Shown here piece by piece: positions 2 through 13,492 of a DNA stretch of 13,492 bases. The translations under genes and the position numbers were made by a program. Every line of letters starts with the position of its first letter. Within the stretch, counting starts at the first letter, position 1. The stretch lies in NCBI GenBank assembly GCA_000004985.1, contig GG738994.1. One strand, given 5' to 3'. The stretch is from Naegleria gruberi. Lineage: Eukaryota. The notes below the pieces were generated by a model. The model did not search any database. It saw only the letters and a program-made list of their open reading frames with translations, and was not told the DNA's origin.

Positions 2-1762
2 AATGCTCTATATATTGCTAAAACTACATTTATTCGTATGTTTGATCTTACCACTAGAAAAATGTCTTTAATTGCTGGTAGTGAAACAGAGGCTGCTCCG
101 AGTGGAGGCTATAATACTTATGACAGGAACCCAGAGGATGCCAGATTTACTTTTATTAAGGAAGTGAGAGTATTAGATGGAGTAGTGTATTTTCTTAATA
201 ATTGTTATGTGACTGACAGTTGTATCAATTATTTTTCTTTGGGTGATCGTATTTTTAACCTTGACAGGGGTTATACTGAAACTGGTGTGTCTTTTGTTGT
301 CTTCAAGGATAGTGAGGGTGAAGTCAATTCACTCGTAGCTACAGCAGAAAAGTTGGTCTATCATAAGAGGCCACATTATAATAGATTTATTAGGAGAACG
401 GAAGCTGATACCATTATCAAGTTGATTGATAACAAAGCTGGAAAACAGGCCTTGGTAACAACCACCAAAGTTATCGATTTTTCAAATGAAGCTACTCTCT
501 TCACTTTTGATTCACCATTTGCAGCTAGGGATGTGGTAATGATATCAGCAACAGCTATTGTATATTCTAGTAGTAGTGGCTATTACTTGAACAAAGTTGA
601 TGCTAAAGGAGAAACAGTACTTGCAGGTATTGGAAACACTATCCAAATTGGAGATTATGGACCTGGTGAAGAAGCATACGGAACCACTACTAAAGGTGTA
701 GCAGTTGTTGACTCAACTTTATACATTTCAGAATATGATAATATGAGAATAAGAAAAGTCAACATTAATACTGGAATTATTTATCCCCATATTACTTTAA
801 CATGCTACCCTTCAAAACTCAAAATGTCCAAAGACAATAACAAGTTATTTTTCCTATGTAGTGACGGTCCAAGTGTATCTATAATGCAGTACATTTTCAG
901 TACAAATTTAATAACAACTGTAAAGTCAGGTTTTCCAGCTGCCACATTTAAGGGTTTTACCTTTGACGCAATTACTGGAGCACTTTTTTATTCAACTTAT
1001 TCTAATGGTGTTACTCAAATTTGTAGACTTAATCCTAATTCCTGTAAGACAATCACTACACAATTTACTGGTGGTGTTTATGGAGACATTGATGCCTACA
1101 ATGGATACATCTATGTTATCTCAAGTGTTGGTTCCATCTATAAGATAAGATATGATACAATGGACGTACAAGTAATTGGCGCCTTCTATCTTGCTGGCTA
1201 TCCAACAATACACATTACAAAACAAGGTACCATATTAATTGGCTCTCATACAGCTGTTTATAGATTTGAAGGTGCACAGGATGGTTCTTTTTATCCAGTT
1301 TCAACTAATTTTGTAATTGCTGGTGATGCTCTTCCACCAGAGGGTACAACCAGTTTATGGTATAGAGAAATCAGCCAAGTTGCAATGTCTGATGATTATC
1401 AAAGATTATTTATTGCTGATCCACATCACCTTGGTGGTGTTACACAATTGAATGCCAAGACCTCATCCTGTTGGTCCTACAAGTATACTAATACTGCAGG
1501 AAATCTGGTATTACCAACTGGAACTTATTGTTCAATTTCTTGTAATTCTGTTGCTTCTAATAATCCAACCGTTTGTAGTGGTTCTGGTTCTTGTACTGCT
1601 TACTTGGTCAATCCTTCTTACTTGGGAAAACCATTTTGTGATTGTGAATATGGCTATTCTGGTACAACTTGTTCTGATTATACCTGTNTTGGTTACCCAA
1701 AAAATGAAACAACTGGTTGTAAATCTCATGGTACTTGTGTTGGATATAATACTTGTAACTGA
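2..1762 (+). CDS. 5'-truncated ORF of a large extracellular protein. It has NHL-type beta-propeller repeats (about 2-1450) and then six-Cys EGF-like repeats from 1469. It stops at TGA 1760-1762, which sits at a consensus Cys position.
   Basis: The 574-aa ORF in frame 2 stays open upstream of ATG 38 to the window edge (..NALYIAKTTFIR-MFDL..), so the Met at 38 is probably internal. NHL-like motifs include GVAVVDSTLYISEYDNMRIRKVNINTG, FTFDAITGALFYSTYSNG and YNGYIYVISSVGSIYKIRYD. From 1469 the repeats are EGF-like, for example CSGSGSCTAYLVNPSYLGKPFCDCEYGYSGTTC and CKSHGTCVGYNTCN. Position 1688 is an ambiguous base. Confidence 0.85.
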   Translation, partial: NALYIAKTTFIRMFDLTTRKMSLIAGSETEAAPSGGYNTYDRNPEDARFTFIKEVRVLDGVVYFLNNCYVTDSCINYFSLGDRIFNLDRGYTETGVSFVVFKDSEGEVNSLVATAEKLVYHKRPHYNRFIRRTEADTIIKLIDNKAGKQALVTTTKVIDFSNEATLFTFDSPFAARDVVMISATAIVYSSSSGYYLNKVDAKGETVLAGIGNTIQIGDYGPGEEAYGTTTKGVAVVDSTLYISEYDNMRIRKVNINTGIIYPHITLTCYPSKLKMSKDNNKLFFLCSDGPSVSIMQYIFSTNLITTVKSGFPAATFKGFTFDAITGALFYSTYSNGVTQICRLNPNSCKTITTQFTGGVYGDIDAYNGYIYVISSVGSIYKIRYDTMDVQVIGAFYLAGYPTIHITKQGTILIGSHTAVYRFEGAQDGSFYPVSTNFVIAGDALPPEGTTSLWYREISQVAMSDDYQRLFIADPHHLGGVTQLNAKTSSCWSYKYTNTAGNLVLPTGTYCSISCNSVASNNPTVCSGSGSCTAYLVNPSYLGKPFCDCEYGYSGTTCSDYTCXGYPKNETTGCKSHGTCVGYNTCN

Positions 1763-2024
1763 GCGAATGGTTATGGCGGAGCACAATGCCACTTTTTCTT
1801 GCAATGGTACACTTTCTAGTAGCAATCAAGTTTGTGGAGGCAATCGTAAGTGTATTGGTCCAAATACTTGTGAACCAATGTGTTATGGAATTGCTGCAAG
1901 TAAAACTGCCACAGTTTGTTCTGGACAAGGTAATTGTACAAGTGAAAACCATTGCACATGTTCATATGGTAGATATGGTTCAAAGTGTGAATATTCTCTT
2001 CCATGTGAATCGCAATGTAGTTTG
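1763..2024 (+). CDS. Continuation of the same EGF-repeat coding sequence. The frame changes twice: frame 2 runs to about 1795, then frame 0 runs to TGA 2025-2027.
   Basis: Directly after the TGA, frame 2 reads ANGYGGAQCHFF. This completes the motif C-N-[TGA]-A-N-GYGG-x-x-C, which matches CNCNNGYGGKNC further downstream. Frame 0 then reads SCNGTLSSSNQVCGGNRKCIGPNTCEPMCYG...CSGQGNCTSENHCTCSYGRYGSKCEYSLPC, which are perfect six-Cys EGF-like repeats. Removing one T from the T5 run at 1793-1797 joins the two frames. Confidence 0.6.
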
Positions 2025-3009
2025 TGAAAATGGGGGAAATTGTACCTTTAGTAAGGGTGTTGAGGTTTGTTCTTGTCCTCCAGGATTTGCTGGTAAAACA
2101 TGTGATCCAGCATGTTCATCAAATAAGAATTGTACAGACCAATATTTCCCTATTTGTGACGTTTCAGGTGTTTGTACATATGAATGTTTATCAGATGGTG
2201 ATTGTGCTACAGTTGTTGGCAGACCAATGTGCGAAACTGGAAGAAACGAATTCGACATTGGTGGTAAATGTATTGCAGGATGTATAAATGATACATCATG
2301 CATTGCAAAGGGAATGCAATATTGTAATGATGGTGTCTGTAGTAATTATGCTTGTGCAGCAGATGCTGATTGTGTTTCTCGTGGCTATTCCCAATGTGCT
2401 GATTTTGAATGCAGAGATGAATGTCATGTCAATAGTGATTGTTCCGACTTTGGTAAATACTCCATCTGTGGAGCTGATCCATCCAATAATTCTACCTATC
2501 ACAGATGCATTCCAAGATCATGTTTCAATAACAGTGATTGTGCAGATCCAATGACTGGAACTCCAAGATGTGATTTGAGTACTTATTTATGTGCAAAGGC
2601 AGATTGTTCAATCGATTCTGATTGTTACTCTTATGGTTATTCACTTTGTTCCAATAGTTTTTGTAAAATTGAATGTCTTTCTCATACTGATTGCAACAAA
2701 CCTGGTTTGCAAAGATGTGGTTTGAACAATACTGTACCTACGGAATATCGTAGATGTTTGGAATCTTGTGATTCTACTTGTGAAAAATGTTCAGAAAACA
2801 GAATCACATGTTTGCAATGCTCAACTGGATTTGTTGTAGACAATCTTGGTAAATGTGTTATTGATTCCACCAATCCTGTTAACAACTCTACTAATCCTCA
2901 AAACAATACCAATCCAGTCGATCCAGTCAACCCAACTAACGATACTAACCCAATTAAAATACTACTACCCCAAGTAGTAATAATACCACTCCAAGTAATA
3001 ATACCATAA
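2005..3009 (+). CDS. Continuation in frame 1. It contains one EGF-like repeat, seven tandem four-Cys repeats of about 30 aa (CxxxSDC..C..C), laminin/TNFR-like CxxC..GF modules, and an N/T/P-rich stalk rich in N-glycosylation sequons. The stop at 3007-3009 is probably an artefact.
   Basis: Frame 1 resumes the consensus at NVVCENGGNCTFSKGVEVCSCPPGFAGKTC. Repeats follow, such as ECLSDGDCATVVGRPMC, CAADADCVSRGYSQCADFEC, CHVNSDCSDFGKYSIC, CFNNSDCADPMTGTPRC and CSIDSDCYSYGYSLC. The tail reads NPVNNSTNPQNNTNPVDPVNPTNDTNP. From 2958 the +2 frame reads NTTTPSSNNTTPSNNTINTNNGQSTI into the gap. One extra A in the A4 run at 2956-2959 would join it to the upstream frame. Confidence 0.65.
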   Translation: MNRNVVCENGGNCTFSKGVEVCSCPPGFAGKTCDPACSSNKNCTDQYFPICDVSGVCTYECLSDGDCATVVGRPMCETGRNEFDIGGKCIAGCINDTSCIAKGMQYCNDGVCSNYACAADADCVSRGYSQCADFECRDECHVNSDCSDFGKYSICGADPSNNSTYHRCIPRSCFNNSDCADPMTGTPRCDLSTYLCAKADCSIDSDCYSYGYSLCSNSFCKIECLSHTDCNKPGLQRCGLNNTVPTEYRRCLESCDSTCEKCSENRITCLQCSTGFVVDNLGKCVIDSTNPVNNSTNPQNNTNPVDPVNPTNDTNPIKILLPQVVIIPLQVIIP

Positions 3010-3037
3010 ATACCAACAATGGACAATCCACAATAAT

Positions 3038-3634
3038 NNNNNNNNNNNNNNNNNNNNNNNNNNNNNNNNNNNNNNNNNNNNNNNNNNNNNNNNNNNNNNN
3101 NNNNNNNNNNNNNNNNNNNNNNNNNNNNNNNNNNNNNNNNNNNNNNNNNNNNNNNNNNNNNNNNNNNNNNNNNNNNNNNNNNNNNNNNNNNNNNNNNNNN
3201 NNNNNNNNNNNNNNNNNNNNNNNNNNNNNNNNNNNNNNNNNNNNNNNNNNNNNNNNNNNNNNNNNNNNNNNNNNNNNNNNNNNNNNNNNNNNNNNNNNNN
3301 NNNNNNNNNNNNNNNNNNNNNNNNNNNNNNNNNNNNNNNNNNNNNNNNNNNNNNNNNNNNNNNNNNNNNNNNNNNNNNNNNNNNNNNNNNNNNNNNNNNN
3401 NNNNNNNNNNNNNNNNNNNNNNNNNNNNNNNNNNNNNNNNNNNNNNNNNNNNNNNNNNNNNNNNNNNNNNNNNNNNNNNNNNNNNNNNNNNNNNNNNNNN
3501 NNNNNNNNNNNNNNNNNNNNNNNNNNNNNNNNNNNNNNNNNNNNNNNNNNNNNNNNNNNNNNNNNNNNNNNNNNNNNNNNNNNNNNNNNNNNNNNNNNNN
3601 NNNNNNNNNNNNNNNNNNNNNNNNNNNNNNNNNN
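3038..3634. other. Assembly gap: a run of 597 N characters.
   Basis: The gap is seen directly as a run of n. The X-only ORFs on the track across it are artefacts. Confidence 0.99.
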
Positions 3635-3653
3635 TGAACTTCACTTATTGTAA

Positions 3654-4330
3654 TGTACAACTGGTTACATAACTACTGATCTCTCTCAACCATGTTCAAT
3701 GTGTAACTCTACCCTTAAACTAACTCTTGATCAAAATGGAAAATGTGTTTGTGATGCTAGCAATGGATACGTTGTTGGTGCAACAGGAGCTTGTGTCAAG
3801 TACACAGCCAAGTGTCCTATTGCATGTGGTTCCAATGGGGCCTGTCAATTGTTAACTCCAACAACTTCAGGATGTGTGTGTAAGAATGGTTTTATCACAA
3901 CCAATGAAACTAAACCATGTTCATCTTGTCCTCAAGGAAAGATTAATTCTTCCTCTAAATGTGTATGTGATACAGTCAATGGATACACTATAAATGGTAC
4001 TGGTTGTGGCTGTGATGCTTCTCGTGGATATATTGCTGGTTCTGATGGACTTTGTTCTTGCAATGCAAATCTCAATTTGGTTACCTATGGTTCATCATGT
4101 GTCTGTAAGCTTAACTATCATTTAGTTAATGGATCTTGTGTTTTAATTCCTCCAGCTTGTTATGGTAGTTCGAGTTGTGGAATCCATGGACAATGTATGT
4201 ATGAGGATGTAAATAACACTGCCCGTACAATCTGTCAATGTGACACTGGATACACCACTGCCTCTTACAGTACCTCTCTTTGTGTAGACTGTGCTAGAGA
4301 TTATCGTATGGATAAAAATTATATCTGTAA
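3654..4330 (+). other. Cys-rich repeat region with CxCDxxNGYxxxxxGxC modules and CxxC/CxxxxC pairs.
   Basis: Examples are NGKCVCDASNGYVVGATGACV, SSKCVCDTVNGYTINGTGCGCDASRGYIAGSDGLCSC, and a six-Cys unit CYGSSSCGIHGQCMYEDVNNTARTICQCDTGYTT. Confidence 0.6.
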
Positions 4331-7300
4331 AAAGAGCTGTGTGCTCGATGGTTACAATGATGATTGTACTACCTATGTTCCTGCTGATATTTGTGCTTAT
4401 ACAAATCCCCAAACAATTCCATTCTGTGGATTTAATATTTACAGGGTAAGACAAAGAAGATTTTTAAGGCAGAATTATACAGGTGAACTTGTTTATATTG
4501 GAAGGGACATGGTTAAAGATTTGGACAAATCAATGATTTATTATGATACATTGGCTAAAAACAAAACCAGAGATGCCATGCTTGAACTTGCCAAAGCAGG
4601 AGTAGTTTGTGACAGCAAATGTAAAGAACATTTGACTGTCCTGTATTGTAAATCATTGGTACCTATGTGTGATGGAACCGATGCTCCAATAGAAAGAACA
4701 TTTTGTAAGCAAACTTGTATTGACATTTGGTCCCAAAAGTTAAATTACACTGTTAATTTGGAATCAAAGTGTGAAGGATTGTCAGTAGAAGATTCTTGTG
4801 ACTCGCGTCCATATATCAACCCTTCAACTCAATGCTTTGGTGTTCACTATTTAAATTCATCTGTTTGTTCAGGAAGGGGTCAATGCATTCAAAAAGATAC
4901 TTGTAATTGTAATAATGGATATGGAGGAAAAAATTGTGAACAATTCGTTTGTTTTATTTATAAGGATACCGATATACCAGTTTGTAATTATCGTGGAAAG
5001 TGCGTTGGACCACACACTTGTGCCTGTAATGGTCCTTGGACTGGAAGTGATTGTCAGATACCTCTCTGTAATCGTAAAACTGAAAAACAAGGCGGTTGCA
5101 ATTTCAATGGAGTTTGTAAGCTTATTCTTGGAAGTCCATCTTGTATCTGTGCTTCAAGTGGTAATTGGGCTAAATCAGATGTTTCTTGCTCTGTTTGTGC
5201 AACTGGATGGGGAGGACCTGGTTGTAATGTTCCAGTTTGTAATGGGGTTATATCAACAAGTCCAGATGTTTGTGGTGGAAGAGGTGGATGTGATTCGATT
5301 CGTCTTGCACAACCATCTTGTACTTGTTTGAAAGGATATGAAGGAAACAATTGCCAAAACTTTAAGTGTAATGAAATTGATAGAAATAGCACTTCTGTGT
5401 GTTCTGGACGTGGTACTTGTGCTGGCTTAAACACTTGTGTTTGTAAGGGTAATTTCGACCCAGCTAAATTCTGTTCTGAATGTACACCGGCCTATAATGG
5501 AACTGATTGTACTGAAAGAGTTTGTACTGAAGCAGGTACTTGTAATGGTAATGGTATTTGTAATTCAAATGGAAAATGTGACTGTACTGGAAATTGGGTT
5601 GGTCAATTTTGTGACAAATGTTTACCTGGATTTGTTGGTTCTTCATGTAATATTAAATGTGATTGTAATGGAAGAGGAAGTTGTAACAATGATGGATCAT
5701 GTATCTGTTCTGAAAATGCAGAAGGTACCAAATGTGAAACTTGTAAAACAGGATGGTATGGTGATAAGTGTGATTTCTCAATTGATGCTTCTTCATTTGG
5801 ATTTTCATCAAATGGTGACTCCATCTCAGGAACAGTTTATTCTTCTCTCAAGAGAAAGTTTGATTGTTCTGAACTAATTTTGGAATCTTCAAAGCTAGGT
5901 AAAGGAGCAGTGTGCGTTGTTAATAGTGATTCAAACTTGATGACCATTTCTCTTGGAAGAAATGCTTCAATTGTCCTTGATGAGGTTCTTACATTCAAGT
6001 CATACTTTAATTCTTCATCAACTGTTTCTGTAACATTTGCTGAAAGAGATTATATACCAACAAATCCTTCCATCTCTGTCACTACTGATAAGACAACAAT
6101 TTCAAGAGCTTGTGGTTTCGTCTATTTGGATGCCTCTGGCTCCACATCAACAGATCGTAGAACATTGCAATTCTCTTGGAGTGTTCAGTCTGCACCTTCT
6201 CCACTTAATGGTCTTACTTTAACTAGTTTAATTACTAATCAACAAGGGTCTTCAGGAGTCACTATTAATTCAAACAGTCTTGGTGTTGGCAGTTATTCTG
6301 TTACAGCAACCATCACAAGTCCATTTTCTGGTTTAAGTGCTTCTTCAACTGTCTCATTCCTGGTTACTGATTTGACAGCTCCTATCGTTTCAATTAAGGA
6401 GGGCTCTGAAAGTACAATGACTATTGGAAAGATTTATTCAATCAATCCAAAGATTACATTCCCAAGCTGTTATGGTGGAAATGGACCATTTACGTTTACA
6501 TATGCTTTGGATGTTAGAAATGTCATTCCAGTAGTTGTTAAACAAAAGTATAATATTCTCGTCTTCAGTGAAGATTATACCAAGATTACTGAACCAGGCG
6601 ATTATTACTTCACTTTCACTGTTTCTCAAGCTGGAGCATCAAGTGTGACAGTTCCATTTAAGGTAACTGCTAAGGCACTTCCTTTGAGCGTTGGATTCAA
6701 TATTGGTGATAGAACTCAATCTGTGGAAACTGAAGTTTCGTTCACCGTTTCCAAGTCTGACCCAAGTAATCCTTCAGATAATTCTGGAACAGTTGTCTTG
6801 TCATGTTTGGATCTTGACAATAGTGCAGATTGTAGCGGATTTACCTCTGGTGAAGCAAATATTGACCAAACTACTTTGAAATTCTCTAAATTTATGGTTC
6901 CCGGCCCATATCTCTTCACTGCTACATTTACAAAGGGTTCAAGAAGTAGCTCTGCAAGTATTAAAGTGACTGTTATTGATCAACCAAAGGACACTGTCAT
7001 TAGAGTGTCTATTGCTGCTCCTCCAAATACTGACTTGACAGCTGTTGATCCATCTTCTGATTTCATATTACAAGCTTATTCATCAGATGTTCTGTCAACT
7101 GACAGAGTTTACACATGGTCATCACCTGACCTTGATATGTCTGGAATTGTTACCAGTAACAAGTACATTCTTCTTCCAAAGATCTTACTTGTTCCAGGTA
7201 CTTTCCATATTATTAACCTTAATGTAGTAGATGATCAAAGATCTGGTGAAGCAACTATTTCATTTACAATCAACTCTCCACCAACAGTTGGTATTTTGGA

Positions 7301-8816
7301 AGTTTCTCCTGCTACAGGTGTTGCTTTACAAGACGATTTCCAAATCAAGTGTGGTAATGGTTGGTATGATACTCAACTTCCTTTGATGTATGAATTCAAA
7401 TACAGAGTGGTAGGAGATTCAACTTGGAAGGTTTTGTCAGAAATGTCTGAAAAGAAATCAATCACTTCTCAATTACCAGCTGGTAAAATTGAAATCAAGA
7501 CAATTGTTTATGATTCTCTTTCTGCCTCCTCTGAAACTACAACTCTTGTTACTGTTACTGTCCCTTCCCTTAGTGAAGCCATTGCTGCTTTGAATGTTTC
7601 TCAAATGGGTACAGTTTCAGTTGCTTCAGTTTCATCTGCATTGAGTTTAGTAAGTGAAATTACTGTTTCCACTCCAGAACAAAAACAAGCCCTAGCACAA
7701 GCTAATAAGGCTCTTGTAGACAAATTCTTTGAACAACAAGACGTACAATCTCAAATCGTTTCTGAAACTTCTCAATCTGCCAGTTCAAAAGTTTCTGTTA
7801 TTTCTTCCATTAGTAATTGTTTAGGAAACTTCCCAGATGAAACCATTTCCAAGGTTATTGATCAGTTCTCTTCAACTATCTCATCAGCTTCTTCTTCATC
7901 TAATGTTAATATGAAGACAGATGATATTCAAAACTCCAAGGAAGCTGCTTTGAACCTCAAGAGCTATGTTTCAAATGCCATTTCAAAGAGAGCAGTAACT
8001 ACTCTTACTGTCAAGGATTTGGCAAAGATTGATGGCATCTATAGCAATATTGTTAATGTCGAACTTAAGAGTGCAGTTGCTGATATGCCAGCTGTCAGAA
8101 GTACTGGTGTTGATTCATCTATTTATGCCAGACTTGTCAGTATTTCAACCCTTAGTGGTTTGTCTGGTTTTGTTGATGATACAAGCTTTTCTTCATCCTA
8201 TTTTGAAATGAAGAATGTTTTCAGCTCTATGAAGAGATTTGAAAATGTTGACAGTGTTAAAATTGTCACAAAGGTTTACAAGTTGACCAACTCAACATTG
8301 AAAGCAATCAGTAAGGTGATTGACTTTGTCATTACTGAAAATGATAACAACCTTTCCTTTGCATCTGAAAATATCACTCTTGCCACAATCAAGATTGAAA
8401 AAGTCAAAACAGCAAGAACCTCATTCACACAAACACAAATTTCATGTTATTCAGTTCAAAACAATGTCTATTCCATCTCGCCAAATTGTAAAGTTGTTAG
8501 CACCAATAGTGCAACTGCAGATATTTCTGTTACTAACACTGGTTCCTATGTTGTTGCTGAAGTCACTGTGGACAGCCCAATTACTCCAACAAATTCCACG
8601 CCGAAACCAACAGAATCGAATAATAATAACATTGTCACTCCAATTCCTGGTGTTAATCAATCAGACTCCAACTTGTATTACATCATTTTTGTTCTGGCCA
8701 TAATACCTATTGTGTTATTGATAATTGTTGGTATATTGGTTTGTATTTGTTGTATGATCAAGAAGAAGAAGAAAAGACCAAGCCCAGGTCCAAGAGATAT
8801 CGAACTAACTGCTTAA
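3654..8816 (+). CDS. A 5.1 kb intronless exon encoding the C-terminal about 1720 aa of a giant type-I membrane protein. The order is Cys-rich repeats, a Frizzled-like CRD, nine EGF-like repeats, a REJ-like module, a helical Ser-rich region, a GPS-like remnant, a mucin-like stalk, one transmembrane helix and a short Lys-rich tail. The ATG at 3699 is not the true start.
   Basis: The track gives 1705 aa with no stop over 5118 nt of AT-rich DNA. The same frame is open from 3654, right after a TAA at 3651-3653 that abuts the gap. There it reads CTTGYITTDLSQPC, which mirrors CSTGFVVDNLGKC at 2820-2860. There is no signal peptide at MCNSTLKL. The C-terminus is YYIIFVLAIIPIVLLIIVGILVCICCMI followed by KKKKKRPSPGPRDIELTA and TAA at 8814-8816. 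Confidence 0.92.
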   Translation, partial: CTTGYITTDLSQPCSMCNSTLKLTLDQNGKCVCDASNGYVVGATGACVKYTAKCPIACGSNGACQLLTPTTSGCVCKNGFITTNETKPCSSCPQGKINSSSKCVCDTVNGYTINGTGCGCDASRGYIAGSDGLCSCNANLNLVTYGSSCVCKLNYHLVNGSCVLIPPACYGSSSCGIHGQCMYEDVNNTARTICQCDTGYTTASYSTSLCVDCARDYRMDKNYICKKSCVLDGYNDDCTTYVPADICAYTNPQTIPFCGFNIYRVRQRRFLRQNYTGELVYIGRDMVKDLDKSMIYYDTLAKNKTRDAMLELAKAGVVCDSKCKEHLTVLYCKSLVPMCDGTDAPIERTFCKQTCIDIWSQKLNYTVNLESKCEGLSVEDSCDSRPYINPSTQCFGVHYLNSSVCSGRGQCIQKDTCNCNNGYGGKNCEQFVCFIYKDTDIPVCNYRGKCVGPHTCACNGPWTGSDCQIPLCNRKTEKQGGCNFNGVCKLILGSPSCICASSGNWAKSDVSCSVCATGWGGPGCNVPVCNGVISTSPDVCGGRGGCDSIRLAQPSCTCLKGYEGNNCQNFKCNEIDRNSTSVCSGRGTCAGLNTCVCKGNFDPAKFCSECTPAYNGTDCTERVCTEAGTCNGNGICNSNGKCDCTGNWVGQFCDKCLPGFVGSSCNIKCDCNGRGSCNNDGSCICSENAEGTKCETCKTGWYGDKCDFSIDASSFGFSSNGDSISGTVYSSLKRKFDCSELILESSKLGKGAVCVVNSDSNLMTISLGRNASIVLDEVLTFKSYFNSSSTVSVTFAERDYIPTNPSISVTTDKTTISRACGFVYLDASGSTSTDRRTLQFSWSVQSAPSPLNGLTLTSLITNQQGSSGVTINSNSLGVGSYSVTATITSPFSGLSASSTVSFLVTDLTAPIVSIKEGSESTMTIGKIYSINPKITFPSCYGGNGPFTFTYALDVRNVIPVVVKQKYNILVFSEDYTKITEPGDYYFTFTVSQAGASSVTVPFKVTAKALPLSVGFNIGDRTQSVETEVSFTVSKSDPSNPSDNSGTVVLSCLDLDNSADCSGFTSGEANIDQTTLKFSKFMVPGPYLFTATFTKGSRSSSASIKVTVIDQPKDTVIRVSIAAPPNTDLTAVDPSSDFILQAYSSDVLSTDRVYTWSSPDLDMSGIVTSNKYILLPKILLVPGTFHIINLNVVDDQRSGEATISFTINSPPTVGILEVSPATGVALQDDFQIKCGNGWYDTQLPLMYEFKYRVVGDSTWKVLSEMSEKKSITSQLPAGKIEIKTIVYDSLSASSETTTLVTVTVPSLSEAIAALNVSQMGTVSVASVSSALSLVSEITVSTPEQKQALAQANKALVDKFFEQQDVQSQIVSETSQSASSKVSVISSISNCLGNFPDETISKVIDQFSSTISSASSSSNVNMKTDDIQNSKEAALNLKSYVSNAISKRAVTTLTVKDLAKIDGIYSNIVNVELKSAVADMPAVRSTGVDSSIYARLVSISTLSGLSGFVDDTSFSSSYFEMKNVFSSMKRFENVDSVKIVTKVYKLTNSTLKAISKVIDFVITENDNNLSFASENITLATIKIEKVKTARTSFTQTQISCYSVQNNVYSISPNCKVVSTNSATADISVTNTGSYVVAEVTVDSPITPTNSTPKPTESNNNNIVTPIPGVNQSDSNLYYIIFVLAIIPIVLLIIVGILVCICCMIKKKKKRPSPGPRDIELTA
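4392..4799 (+). other. Frizzled-type cysteine-rich domain (FZ-CRD)-like module.
   Basis: There are ten Cys. The core spacing CKEHLTVLYC-KSLVPMC-DGTDAPIERTFC-KQTC gives C-x8-C-x6-C-x11-C-x3-C. This matches the Fz CRD core (..FLCSMYAPVC..PPCRSLC..) as I recall it. A conserved Pro precedes the third Cys, and a Trp (IDIW) follows the CxxxC pair. Confidence 0.4.
4833..5771 (+). other. Array of about nine six-Cys EGF-like repeats of the tenascin / Dictyostelium type.
   Basis: Examples are VCSGRGQCIQKDTCNCNNGYGGKNCEQFVC, VCNYRGKCVGPHTCACNGPWTGSDCQIPLC, CSVCATGWGGPGCNVPVC, CDKCLPGFVGSSCNIKCDCNGRGSCNNDGSCIC and CETCKTGWYGDKCDF. Confidence 0.85.
6100..7570 (+). other. REJ-like module (receptor for egg jelly / polycystin-1 type). 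The core signature lies at 7270-7400.
   Basis: A Cys-poor, Ser/Thr-rich beta-strand region shows the pattern FTINSPPTVGILEVSPATGVALQDDFQIKCGNGWYDTQLPLMYEFKYRV. This fits the REJ signature nAPPsgG..v.P..GvAL...F.i.C.gW.D...PL.Y as I remember it from PKD1 and suREJ. Upstream there are SW/TW-containing repeats (SWSVQSAPSPLNG, TWSSPDLDMSG). Confidence 0.5.
8676..8759 (+). other. A single predicted transmembrane helix. It follows a Ser/Thr/Pro/Asn stalk (8580-8675) and precedes a (AAG)n-encoded KKKKK stop-transfer sequence.
   Basis: The sequence YYIIFVLAIIPIVLLIIVGILVCICCMI is 28 consecutive hydrophobic residues, with a basic cluster immediately after it. Confidence 0.8.
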
Positions 8817-9026: not shown

Positions 9027-9914
9027 TCATGTAACTCTGTAAACCTTGATTCTATTATTTCCAGTATCAACAATAAACAAACGAGATGACCCGTAGCAGA
9101 ATGCAATTCCAGAAGGATATTTCAATGAATTTTCATGGTTTCCAAAGCTACCAATGCAAGTAGAACCAGAAAAGGGATTGTTAGGATGAAATTTTGAAAT
9201 TCTATGTGAATCCCACTCTGTAAGAAATATATCACCAGTTGACTTGTCCACAAAAACAGAGTTTGGTGCTTGAAATTCTCCCTTATCATTCCCAATACTT
9301 CCAAAGCTACTAATAAATTCTCCATTAGATTTCAGTATCTGTATGCGATTATTTCCACTGTCAGAAATAATGATATTCCCAGCACTGTCAATGTCAATAT
9401 CTCTTGGGAATGAGAATTGACCATATTCCTTTCCCATAGATCCAATCGATTTCAGTAATTCACCACCTGGAGAAAAAACTACAATTCTATGTTTAAACCA
9501 ATCACAAACATAGATATTTCCCTCATAGTCAACCACAACACCTGTTGGAGAATCCATTACATTCTTTGTTGTAACTCCTCCCCATCTCCATATCTCATTT
9601 CCATTAAAATCATATTTACAAATCAATGAATCTCGAGTGAAACTAATAATTAAAGTGTGATCCCAATGAACTGTCACTGCATTTGGTTTGAATGGTGTCG
9701 TAAACATGTACTTGAATGTCAGAGTTGACTCATCAAAAACCTGAATACGTCTATTATCTGTATCCACAACAAATATTAATTGATTTTTGAAATCAATAGC
9801 CACATCAGATGGATTCTTGAATTGACCATTCTGAGAACCATAACTTCCAATGCATCCAATCAATTCAAACTCGGACTGGCTCGTTTTCATTCCCGAACAA
9901 CCATTCACAGTCAT
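9027..9914 (-). CDS. Six-blade NHL-repeat beta-propeller protein. The ATG is at 9912-9914, and the track's TTG start at 9917 is an alternative-start artefact.
   Basis: Classic NHL repeats are present: PSDVAIDFKNQLIFVVDTDNRRIQVFDES, PTGVVVDYEGNIYVCDWFKHRIVVF, PRDIDIDSAGNIIISDSGNNRIQIL, PNSVFVDKSTGDIFLTEWDSHRISKF and PSGIAFCYGSSRLFIVDTGNNRIKVYRVT. The stop is TGA at 9027-9029. Confidence 0.85.
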   Translation of the reverse strand: MTVNGCSGMKTSQSEFELIGCIGSYGSQNGQFKNPSDVAIDFKNQLIFVVDTDNRRIQVFDESTLTFKYMFTTPFKPNAVTVHWDHTLIISFTRDSLICKYDFNGNEIWRWGGVTTKNVMDSPTGVVVDYEGNIYVCDWFKHRIVVFSPGGELLKSIGSMGKEYGQFSFPRDIDIDSAGNIIISDSGNNRIQILKSNGEFISSFGSIGNDKGEFQAPNSVFVDKSTGDIFLTEWDSHRISKFHPNNPFSGSTCIGSFGNHENSLKYPSGIAFCYGSSRLFIVDTGNNRIKVYRVT

Positions 9915-9917
9915 CAA

Positions 9918-10282
9918 TGTTGATGTTGTTTGATACTGACTATTATGATGACCATTAAAATTATGAAAATAGGACAGTGATGAATTCTTCTTAATTTCAT
10001 ATTGTTATTATTATTATTATCAATCATATAATTGTCATTGTTACTCATCGGAGTAGTTTCTATCAATGTTGTATGATGATCATGATCCATCAGTGCACTA
10101 CTATTAAAATTACTATTATTATTGTTGTTATTGTGATTATGATTGGGTAGAGATGAAGTCATCATCATCAACCTTCCATCAGAATCATAATGATGTGATG
10201 GTTGTGATGTTGGTGGTACCTCCGAAGCACAATCATCAAAGGATCGTTTCATTCGGTTTTTTTGTTTGTTGTATTGATGCAT
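9918..10282 (-). CDS. Possible N-terminal low-complexity, Asn/His-rich extension of the NHL gene. It lies in a different frame and needs a frame shift at about 9915-9990 to join.
   Basis: The 122-aa ORF reads MHQYNKQKNRMKRSFDDCASEVPPTSQPSHHYDSDGRLMMMTSSLPNHNHNNNNNNSNFNSS...DNNNNNN. It has moderate GC and is unlike spacer sequence. Just after the Asn tract it crosses into the NHL frame, which opens immediately after the (TAA)n reading of the same tract. Confidence 0.45.
10001..10018 (-). repeat. (AAT)6 tract encoding poly-Asn. A second imperfect AAT/AAC/CAT tract encoding NHNHNNNNNNSNFNSS lies at about 10100-10146.
   Basis: Seen directly in the sequence. Confidence 0.85.
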
Positions 10283-11534: not shown

Positions 11535-11539
11535 AAAAA
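11535..11539 (-). terminator. Pol III T5 terminator immediately 3' of the 5S gene.
   Basis: On the minus strand, ..GTAGTC is followed directly by TTTTT. Confidence 0.7.
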
Positions 11540-11657
11540 GACTACAGCACCACAGGTTCCCAAGTTGTCTCCAATCTCAGTACTGATGTGGCTCGACGAT
11601 GCTTAACTTCTCAAATCGGACGGGATGAGGTGCATGAATCGTGATATGGCCGTAGCC
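11540..11657 (-). rRNA. 5S ribosomal RNA gene, about 118 nt.
   Basis: The minus strand reads GGCTACGGCCATATCACGATTCATGCACCTCATCCCGTCCGATTTGAGAAGTTAAGCATCGTCGAGCCACATCAGTACTGAGATTGGAGACAACTTGGGAACCTGTGGTGCTGTAGTC. This matches the universal 5S blocks GCCATAYCAC, CCCGTCCGAT.TG.GAAGTTAAGC, AGTACT..G.TGGGAGAC and CTGGGAA.ACC.GGTGCTGTAG. The 5' GGCUACGGC pairs with the 3' GCUGUAGUC to form helix I. Confidence 0.9.
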
Positions 11658-12292: not shown

Positions 12293-12666
12293 GAACAGTG
12301 AAGGCAACTAATCTATTGATTGTTGGTTCAGTAAGTTATTGTTTAGAAAAACTTGCAACGTGACCATATATTTATCACATTTGAATTTTATCTACTTAGA
12401 AAGAGAAACTTGTGGTTGATCAATAAACCTTCAAATTTCGAATTTGAGTCTTCAAATATATTGTTTCGTATTGGCAAGTATAAATGTAATTCAAGACAGT
12501 GCAATGAATTTTGTTATAGTGCTTGATCATTAGAATTGTGAATTGGTATAAGGAAAGGTTTGATCGTTTCTCTAGTTAATTTTATTTTCTATTAGTTGAT
12601 AAAAAGAATAAGGTACCAATCTGCATGTTCACAAATCCCCCATTCACAAACCATGGCTGGTAAGGA

Positions 12667-12831
12667 ATGCAGCAATCATCTATGAACGAGGAAACCTACA
12701 ACGAAGCATGTTTCCAGTTCGATATCATGCTCAAGATATGTGACTACAGAGTCTTCATCTTGGTTAACCTCAAAGGTCAGATTGACTCAAAAAAGTCGAG
12801 TTTATGTATTCCTACAGAAAAGATCCTGTAG
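12667..12831 (+). CDS. Small 54-aa ORF, just below the track threshold. Its validity is uncertain.
   Basis: The ORF reads MQQSSMNEETYNEACFQFDIMLKICDYRVFILVNLKGQIDSKKSSLCIPTEKIL and ends at TAG 12829-12831. A TATAAAT motif at 12479-12485 and an ATGGCTGgtaagg (start plus donor-like) at 12653-12665 lie upstream in another frame. Confidence 0.2.
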   Translation: MQQSSMNEETYNEACFQFDIMLKICDYRVFILVNLKGQIDSKKSSLCIPTEKIL

Positions 12832-13492
12832 AAGTACAGTCAATGGTTTTATCAAGTTTCATTTGTGAGGTTTGTGATATTGGTTTTGAATGTGTGAAAA
12901 GTGGAATTAGAAAATTGTGGTACGTTTAATGTGTGAAAAATATATAAATAGGATTCAAGAAAATAATTGCATGAGTTATTTTCTTTAAATCATTGAGGTG
13001 GAAAGAGCATTTTCAATAGTTCCATGATGGCTCTTCTTCAAGATCGTAATACCATGGTTTTTAAGAATTTCCTTCAACTCGGTATTTATATCCACTTGTA
13101 TTTGAGCAAATAATCCAGAACTGTTGTAAATTTTTGTCTTGACAAAGTAAGTTGGAGGCAAACTTCCCTTTTTTCGATTCCTATTTTCTCAAAAGTTTTC
13201 TAATTGGTGTTTATGGAGAAAGAACATGAAGTTGCATCATCATAACCACTGTTTCAAACAAAATCAATCAATTTACTGTAAACTTCAGAGTGCCACTTCC
13301 AGGTGTCTCAAGAAAACATTGAACCTTGTCAAAGCAAACAAAATCTTTCGTTTCCACACACAAAACATGATTTAGTCCATTTTTGCCCATATCGGAATTC
13401 ACAACGTGATTAAAAAAACTTTAAATTCGCAAACACAACTATTTGCCTTCAGATAAAAGAAAAAGAAACCAACAACAATTATTAGAACATTT

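Follow-up and report, generated by a model that had tools for sequence, protein, structure and literature searches.

The window analysed here is an entire scaffold of 13,492 bases (13.5 kb) from the draft assembly of Naegleria gruberi NEG-M, in which an internal gap of 597 N leaves 12.9 kb of called sequence. The genome, published in Cell in 2010, was reportedly obtained by Sanger sequencing at ~8x coverage. With a GC content of ~35%, the scaffold agrees with the value of ~35% given for the N. gruberi genome (PMC9928731). On the plus strand, a disrupted coding region (hereafter gene 1) and the gene NAEGRDRAFT_76453 (hereafter gene 2) lie on the two sides of the gap, while the minus strand carries an NHL-repeat beta-propeller gene whose ORF terminates at a TGA (Table 1). 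Directly upstream of the NHL ORF, an Asn-rich ORF (9914-10282, minus strand) may be its 5' exon, and neither of these two ORFs, as read here, has an exact match among public proteins. The minus strand also encodes a full-length 5S rRNA gene (11539-11657; Rfam RF00001, 100 bits, E 2.4e-21) and, ~1 kb from it, a full-length U3 snoRNA gene (12615-12843; Rfam RF00012, 76.7 bits, E 1.2e-15). An exact search of the contig index with the gene 2 protein returned no record, exact look-ups of the other ORFs of the window found no match in the collection, and the gene 1 and gene 2 proteins were found on no other contig in look-ups of the contig and protein collections.

Table 1. Features of gene 1, gene 2 and their surroundings on the 13,492-base scaffold
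Feature	Position	Strand	Evidence or remark
Gene 1, disrupted coding region in three frames	2-3009	+	Six-frame translation, tblastn
Lone N	1688	+	No other isolated N in the window; the TGA begins 72 nt downstream
EGF unit containing the TGA (CKSHGTCVGYNTCN-stop-ANGYGGAQC)	1718-1789	+	Codon view, Pfam PF23106 scoring
TGA at the second Cys of the C-x-C-x2-GYxG-x2-C EGF motif	1760-1762	+	In frame; Cys in 167/170 HSPs
GCG (Ala), codon directly after the TGA	1763-1765	+	Codon usage of neighbouring genes
First +1 frameshift, frame 2 to frame 3, in a T5 run	1793-1797	+	HSP ends and starts
CGT (Arg) where homologous repeats have Gly	1845-1847	+	One base from GGT
EFC35886.1 / NAEGRDRAFT_76452, 344 aa, sole public model on gene 1	1975-3009	+	Frame 1
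Second +1 frameshift, frame 3 to frame 1	2007-2022	+	Exact base cannot be fixed
Scaffold gap, 597 N	3038-3634		Hides the gene 1 3' flank and the gene 2 5' end
Gene 2, EFC35887.1 / NAEGRDRAFT_76453	3699-8816	+	100% identity to the NCBI protein
Intact comparison motif CNCNNGYGGKNC in gene 2 (C-N-C-N-N-G-Y-G-G-K-N-C)	4902-4937	+	
NHL-repeat beta-propeller gene and the Asn-rich ORF upstream of it	9027-10282	-	Pfam NHL, E 5e-31, four repeats

Gene 1 forms one coding region of ~1,000 codons, which is cut off by the 5' end of the scaffold and is read successively in frame 2 (2-1795), frame 3 (1797-2006) and frame 1 (2008-3009). It encodes, in this order, an N-terminal region of ~500 residues with local matches to NHL repeats, a series of teneurin/tenascin-type EGF repeats and a Cys-rich C-terminal region. 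Since all the tblastn alignments on gene 1 are on the plus strand and follow one another in the frame order 2, 3, 1, we are dealing with one gene containing a damaged segment of ~335 nt and not with two genes. When the frames are joined, the Pfam family EGF_TEN matches residues 508-710 of the repaired protein and spans both frameshifts, with a weak E value of 8e-4.

The reference family for these repeats is provided by the teneurin/tenascin-type EGF repeats (PF23106 EGF_Teneurin, PF25024 EGF_TEN and PF07974 EGF_2) of heterolobosean proteins such as NAEGRDRAFT_76453, NAEGRDRAFT_62182 and the Percolomonas protein A0A7S1KM39. Gene 1 and these proteins have in common the pattern C-x3-C-x9-VC-x2-xG-x-C-x5-C-x-C-x2-GYxG-x2-C, which 170 HSPs cover with the other Cys columns matching. 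What sets gene 1 apart is the junction of such repeats to an N-terminal NHL-like region without close relative. Within the first ~500 residues (2-1500), only a segment of ~55 residues (205-261) shows similarity (~38% identity) to NHL-type repeat proteins, and no Pfam family is detected there at E 0.01. A word-indexed search with the repaired protein of 955 residues returned no match at E<=1e-10, Cys-rich proteins having saturated the candidate list. The original prediction had called for a comparison with orthologues; we ran it as an exhaustive HMMER search with the frame 2-1759 against 1.84 billion representatives, which retrieved no orthologue or close paralogue, only local NHL and EGF matches with a best E value of 2.8e-30.

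One of the gene 1 repeats (1869-1884, plus strand) is devoid of the C-x-C-x2-GYxG-x2-C half (…CIGPNTC-EPM-C-YG…). Repeats shortened in this way also occur in P0002 (CISYEKCIPKCHG) and P0003 (CLAPDRCVPKDPICYG), both N. gruberi paralogues, and the form is therefore a variant of the family and not a sign of decay.

Public annotation covers the last third of gene 1 only. For NAEGRDRAFT_76452, the start chosen is an ATG in frame 1, located among the EGF repeats and past both the TGA and the first frameshift, and the first ~11 residues of the model (MVQSVNILFHV) overlap the frame-3 EGF consensus …GRYGSKCEYSLPC (1975-2010). The EGF repeat encoded at this point is in another frame than the ATG, which makes the N-terminus of the model an artefact, and ~650 codons of coding sequence upstream of it have no model. 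At the other end (2945-3037, plus strand), frame 1 encodes an Asn/Pro/Thr-rich stalk (…NPVDPVNPTNDTNP) followed by an odd hydrophobic tail (IKILLPQVVIIPLQVIIP, then a stop), while in frame 3 a stalk-like sequence (NTTTPSSNNTTPSNNTINTNNGQSTI) continues into the gap. This region is of low complexity; a further shift of frame may lie here, close to where the contig ends, and NAEGRDRAFT_76452 would then have a wrong C-terminus in its annotation as well.

Gene 2 is truncated by the gap and otherwise consists of an intact frame of 1705 codons. Its homology to N. lovaniensis and to N. gruberi paralogues extends upstream of the ATG at 3699, as far as 3654 (CTTGYITTDLSQPCSMC), and a TAA follows immediately upstream (3651-3653). 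Just past the gap, frame 1 reads …NFTYCN, and a single missing base, ~20 nt from the gap, would restore C-N-C-T-T-G-Y. Judging from this homology, gene 2 probably starts elsewhere than at the annotated ATG and an indel probably lies ~20 nt from the gap edge.

The TGA (1760-1762) directly follows 586 open codons (2-1759) and shares their frame, frame 2. The local reading (1754-1789: TGT AAC TGA GCG AAT GGT TAT GGC GGA GCA CAA TGC) translates as C-N-stop-A-N-G-Y-G-G-A-Q-C. To place the TGA in the repeat, positions 1300-2400 of the window were compared by tblastn with 11 EGF-repeat proteins, comprising N. gruberi gene 2 paralogues, the N. lovaniensis protein, Percolomonas transcripts, NAEGRDRAFT_62182 and environmental sequences. 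Opposite the TGA codon, 167 of the 170 local alignments crossing it have a cysteine, and the two flanking Cys columns are occupied by cysteine in 173/174 and 164/164 HSPs; in the Cys framework of this unit, all the columns match except the TGA codon itself. On the basis of these alignments, the TGA occupies the position of a conserved disulfide cysteine of a teneurin/tenascin-type EGF repeat, a correspondence well above chance. The homology of the unit is founded on the tblastn alignments and not on a Pfam threshold: the unit (1703-1801) stays below the PF23106 gathering cut-off even with the cysteine restored (17.9 versus 24.3 bits), and it has no PF23106 match when X is substituted. The comparison unit of gene 2 reaches 30.5 bits and is thus above the cut-off.

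The original prediction that an in-frame stop stands exactly where the EGF consensus requires a cysteine is borne out by these counts, as is its description of the stop as the replacement of a structural disulfide cysteine through a single third-position change (TGT or TGC to TGA). The counterpart motif that it designated in gene 2 is real, but its coordinates were 2 nt off (4904-4939 instead of those in Table 1). It had also stated that the sequence downstream of the TGA fits the repeat perfectly. This is true for 9 codons, up to the end of the motif (…AQC), but the frame breaks 11 codons past the TGA and again at the second frameshift.

The TGA is indeed not isolated, five or six anomalies being packed into 335 nt of gene 1. 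The first of them is the lone N, which, being an uncalled base, is a direct sign of uncertain consensus. The residue opposite its codon, NTT, is Phe in 86 of 176 HSPs, and this codon was probably TTT in view of the alignments. The codon that directly follows the TGA, GCG, is the rarest of gene 1 according to the usage of the neighbouring genes: it accounts for 0 of the 92 Ala codons of gene 2 and the NHL gene (relative adaptiveness 0.01). Its presence immediately after the TGA suggests several bad calls in a row.

The first frameshift is located by the alignments themselves, since the frame-2 HSPs end at 1789-1801 (160/179) and the frame-3 HSPs start at 1791-1800 (145/174). Four T instead of five in the run at 1793-1797 would give AQC-HFS-C-NGTLSSSNQ-VC…, with the expected spacing between repeats. 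Frame 3 then contains ~70 codons of good repeat consensus, in which the CGT codon at 1845-1847 is aligned to Gly in 92% of 168 HSPs. The second frameshift falls where frame-3 HSPs end (1988-2024) and most frame-1 HSPs start (2008); the frame-3 reading terminates at a TGA at 2025-2027, and a rare codon of the frame-1 reading, CGC at 2011, lies inside the interval. Apart from the TGA, the shifted frames keep to the family consensus in repeat spacing and Cys positions. Outside the damaged stretch, gene 1 is open over ~2.7 kb (1.7 kb upstream and 1.0 kb downstream).

The explanation that we favour, with a probability of about 0.72, is that the TGA is a base-calling or consensus error within a short and poorly supported stretch (~1688-2022), the real codon being TGT or TGC. 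According to this explanation, miscalls and indels would have arisen in a low-quality patch of a small draft scaffold, and the true gene 1 would encode an intact extracellular protein made of an NHL-like region and teneurin-type EGF repeats. The grouping of the TGA with the other defects speaks for a consensus of poor local quality more than for one clean nonsense mutation, and it is on this clustering that we base the view that the anomalies are most likely technical rather than mutational. The TGA and the two frameshifts span 262 nt of a coding region of 3 kb (P=0.021 under uniform placement), the four lesions including the N would fall within a span of <=334 nt with P=0.005 under the same assumption, and the lone N would lie within 100 nt of the cluster by chance with P=0.036, these statistics having been chosen after the data were seen. 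The first frameshift amounts to one extra T in a homopolymer run, and the scaffold is small and contains an internal gap, two features that we also count for an error. Moreover, with Cys positions and repeat spacing kept in the shifted frames, the region would not seem to have undergone a long decay. If the loss of frame in gene 2, ~20 nt from the gap edge, is real, the scaffold appears to carry frame errors where support is thin.

This behaviour resembles that of low-coverage consensus errors in draft whole-genome shotgun assemblies, in which a stop and frameshifts are found within a few hundred bases of a small scaffold with gaps, beside a base left uncalled, with an indel in a run of T and a gene that is otherwise intact. 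Gene 1 differs from such cases in that the cluster is ~1 kb from the contig end and not at it, which we count against an error, and in that the lesions are here known from the assembled sequence alone. Two other considerations weigh in the same direction: about as many lesions would be expected in a young pseudogene that has diverged by ~1%, and a gene without close homologue would fit a fast-evolving and dispensable family where pseudogenes are common. Indels in homopolymers also arise as real mutations. An exact scan of JGI metagenome contigs with the 47-mer upstream of the TGA gave 0 matches. The original prediction had read the site structurally, as we do, and had named both an assembly error and a pseudogene or null allele as outcomes; the cluster of defects, on which our preference is built, had escaped it.

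The main alternative, possible although we hold it to be unlikely, is that the lesions are real. Gene 1, as a member of a family of surface proteins specific to its lineage, would then be a recent pseudogene or the null allele of a heterozygous locus, having undergone a true TGY-to-TGA nonsense mutation and two insertions of 1 nt. Three independent disabling lesions in a recognisable coding sequence are what this alternative predicts, although sequencing errors lead to the same expectation, and the substitution at the conserved Gly (1845) also counts in its favour. Public databases contain no full-length model but only the 344-aa fragment, and the HMMER search found local repeat matches only; gene 1 belongs to a fast-evolving and lineage-specific class. 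Like gene 1, unitary or young pseudogenes of expanded surface-protein families in protists have several disabling lesions, recognisable domains and no full-length model. For a null allele, one may add that a passage of PMC9928731, citing Fritz-Laylin 2010, reports the N. gruberi strain to be heterozygous. Unlike the lesions of such pseudogenes, however, those of gene 1 are clustered and not spread across 3 kb (P ~0.02), and they adjoin the only lone N of the window (P ~0.036). The remaining 2.7 kb are without stops and the other Cys positions have been kept, while the probable frame error near the gap in gene 2, a gene otherwise intact, points to technical errors on this scaffold.

Readings in which the TGA is genuine and translated are far less probable. 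Insertion of selenocysteine, or of Cys or Trp by near-cognate readthrough, would have to yield a full-length protein, which we regard as most improbable. We give just as little credence to the variant of this proposal in which the TGA encodes selenocysteine or a near-cognate Cys in an extracellular EGF protein and only the two downstream frameshifts are sequencing errors; if true, it would place selenocysteine at a structural disulfide position of a Naegleria EGF-repeat protein. Selenoprotein genes are classically recognised by a TGA that stands opposite cysteine in homologues, and N. gruberi possesses the selenocysteine machinery, including SPS2 fusions, according to a passage of PMC4561486 in which da Silva et al. 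2013 is cited. In these two respects gene 1 is like the eukaryotic selenoprotein genes, which combine an in-frame UGA with a SECIS in the 3'-UTR. It is unlike them in that its frame is broken 11 codons after the TGA, and again ~220 nt later, and recoding would therefore yield no full-length product, and in that the site is not a catalytic or redox one but a structural disulfide cysteine of an extracellular EGF repeat. In addition, Rfam detected no SECIS family in the window at E values up to 10, most of the gene 1 3' flank being hidden in the gap, and none of the other 176 Cys codons of the two genes is a TGA.

A variant genetic code in which TGA means Cys, as in Euplotes, is more improbable still, the coincidence of the TGA with a Cys column being all that speaks for it. 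TGA represents 1 of the 177 codons at Cys positions, and a count of <=1 would be expected with P=0.001 if TGA gave 5% of the cysteines. Furthermore, the NHL ORF on the minus strand uses TGA as its terminator and the scaffold belongs to Naegleria gruberi. Selenocysteine and a UGA=Cys code are thus effectively excluded.

The other candidates that we considered were rejected. An intron skipping the TGA has no room, as the repeat consensus is encoded right up to the TGA and the frame changes from either side, with <10 nt unaccounted for. Misassembly by repeat collapse finds no long nucleotide repeats in the window, where identity between EGF units does not exceed ~82% over 28 nt, and programmed +1 frameshifting would require shifts at stop codons or known slippery motifs, which is not where they are. 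RNA editing was considered and dropped; A-to-U/C editing of nuclear transcripts is not known from Naegleria.

The TGA is thus an ordinary one, whether it reflects a draft-sequencing error, as we favour, or a broken gene copy, and in either case our knowledge of genetic codes, recoding and EGF domains is unchanged. The main value of this analysis is a correction of the annotation: gene 1 is one region, of which only the last third has been modelled, with a wrong start. If the lesions are real, gene 1 would be an ordinary young pseudogene. If they are errors, N. gruberi would gain one more large NHL-like/EGF-repeat protein without close relatives.
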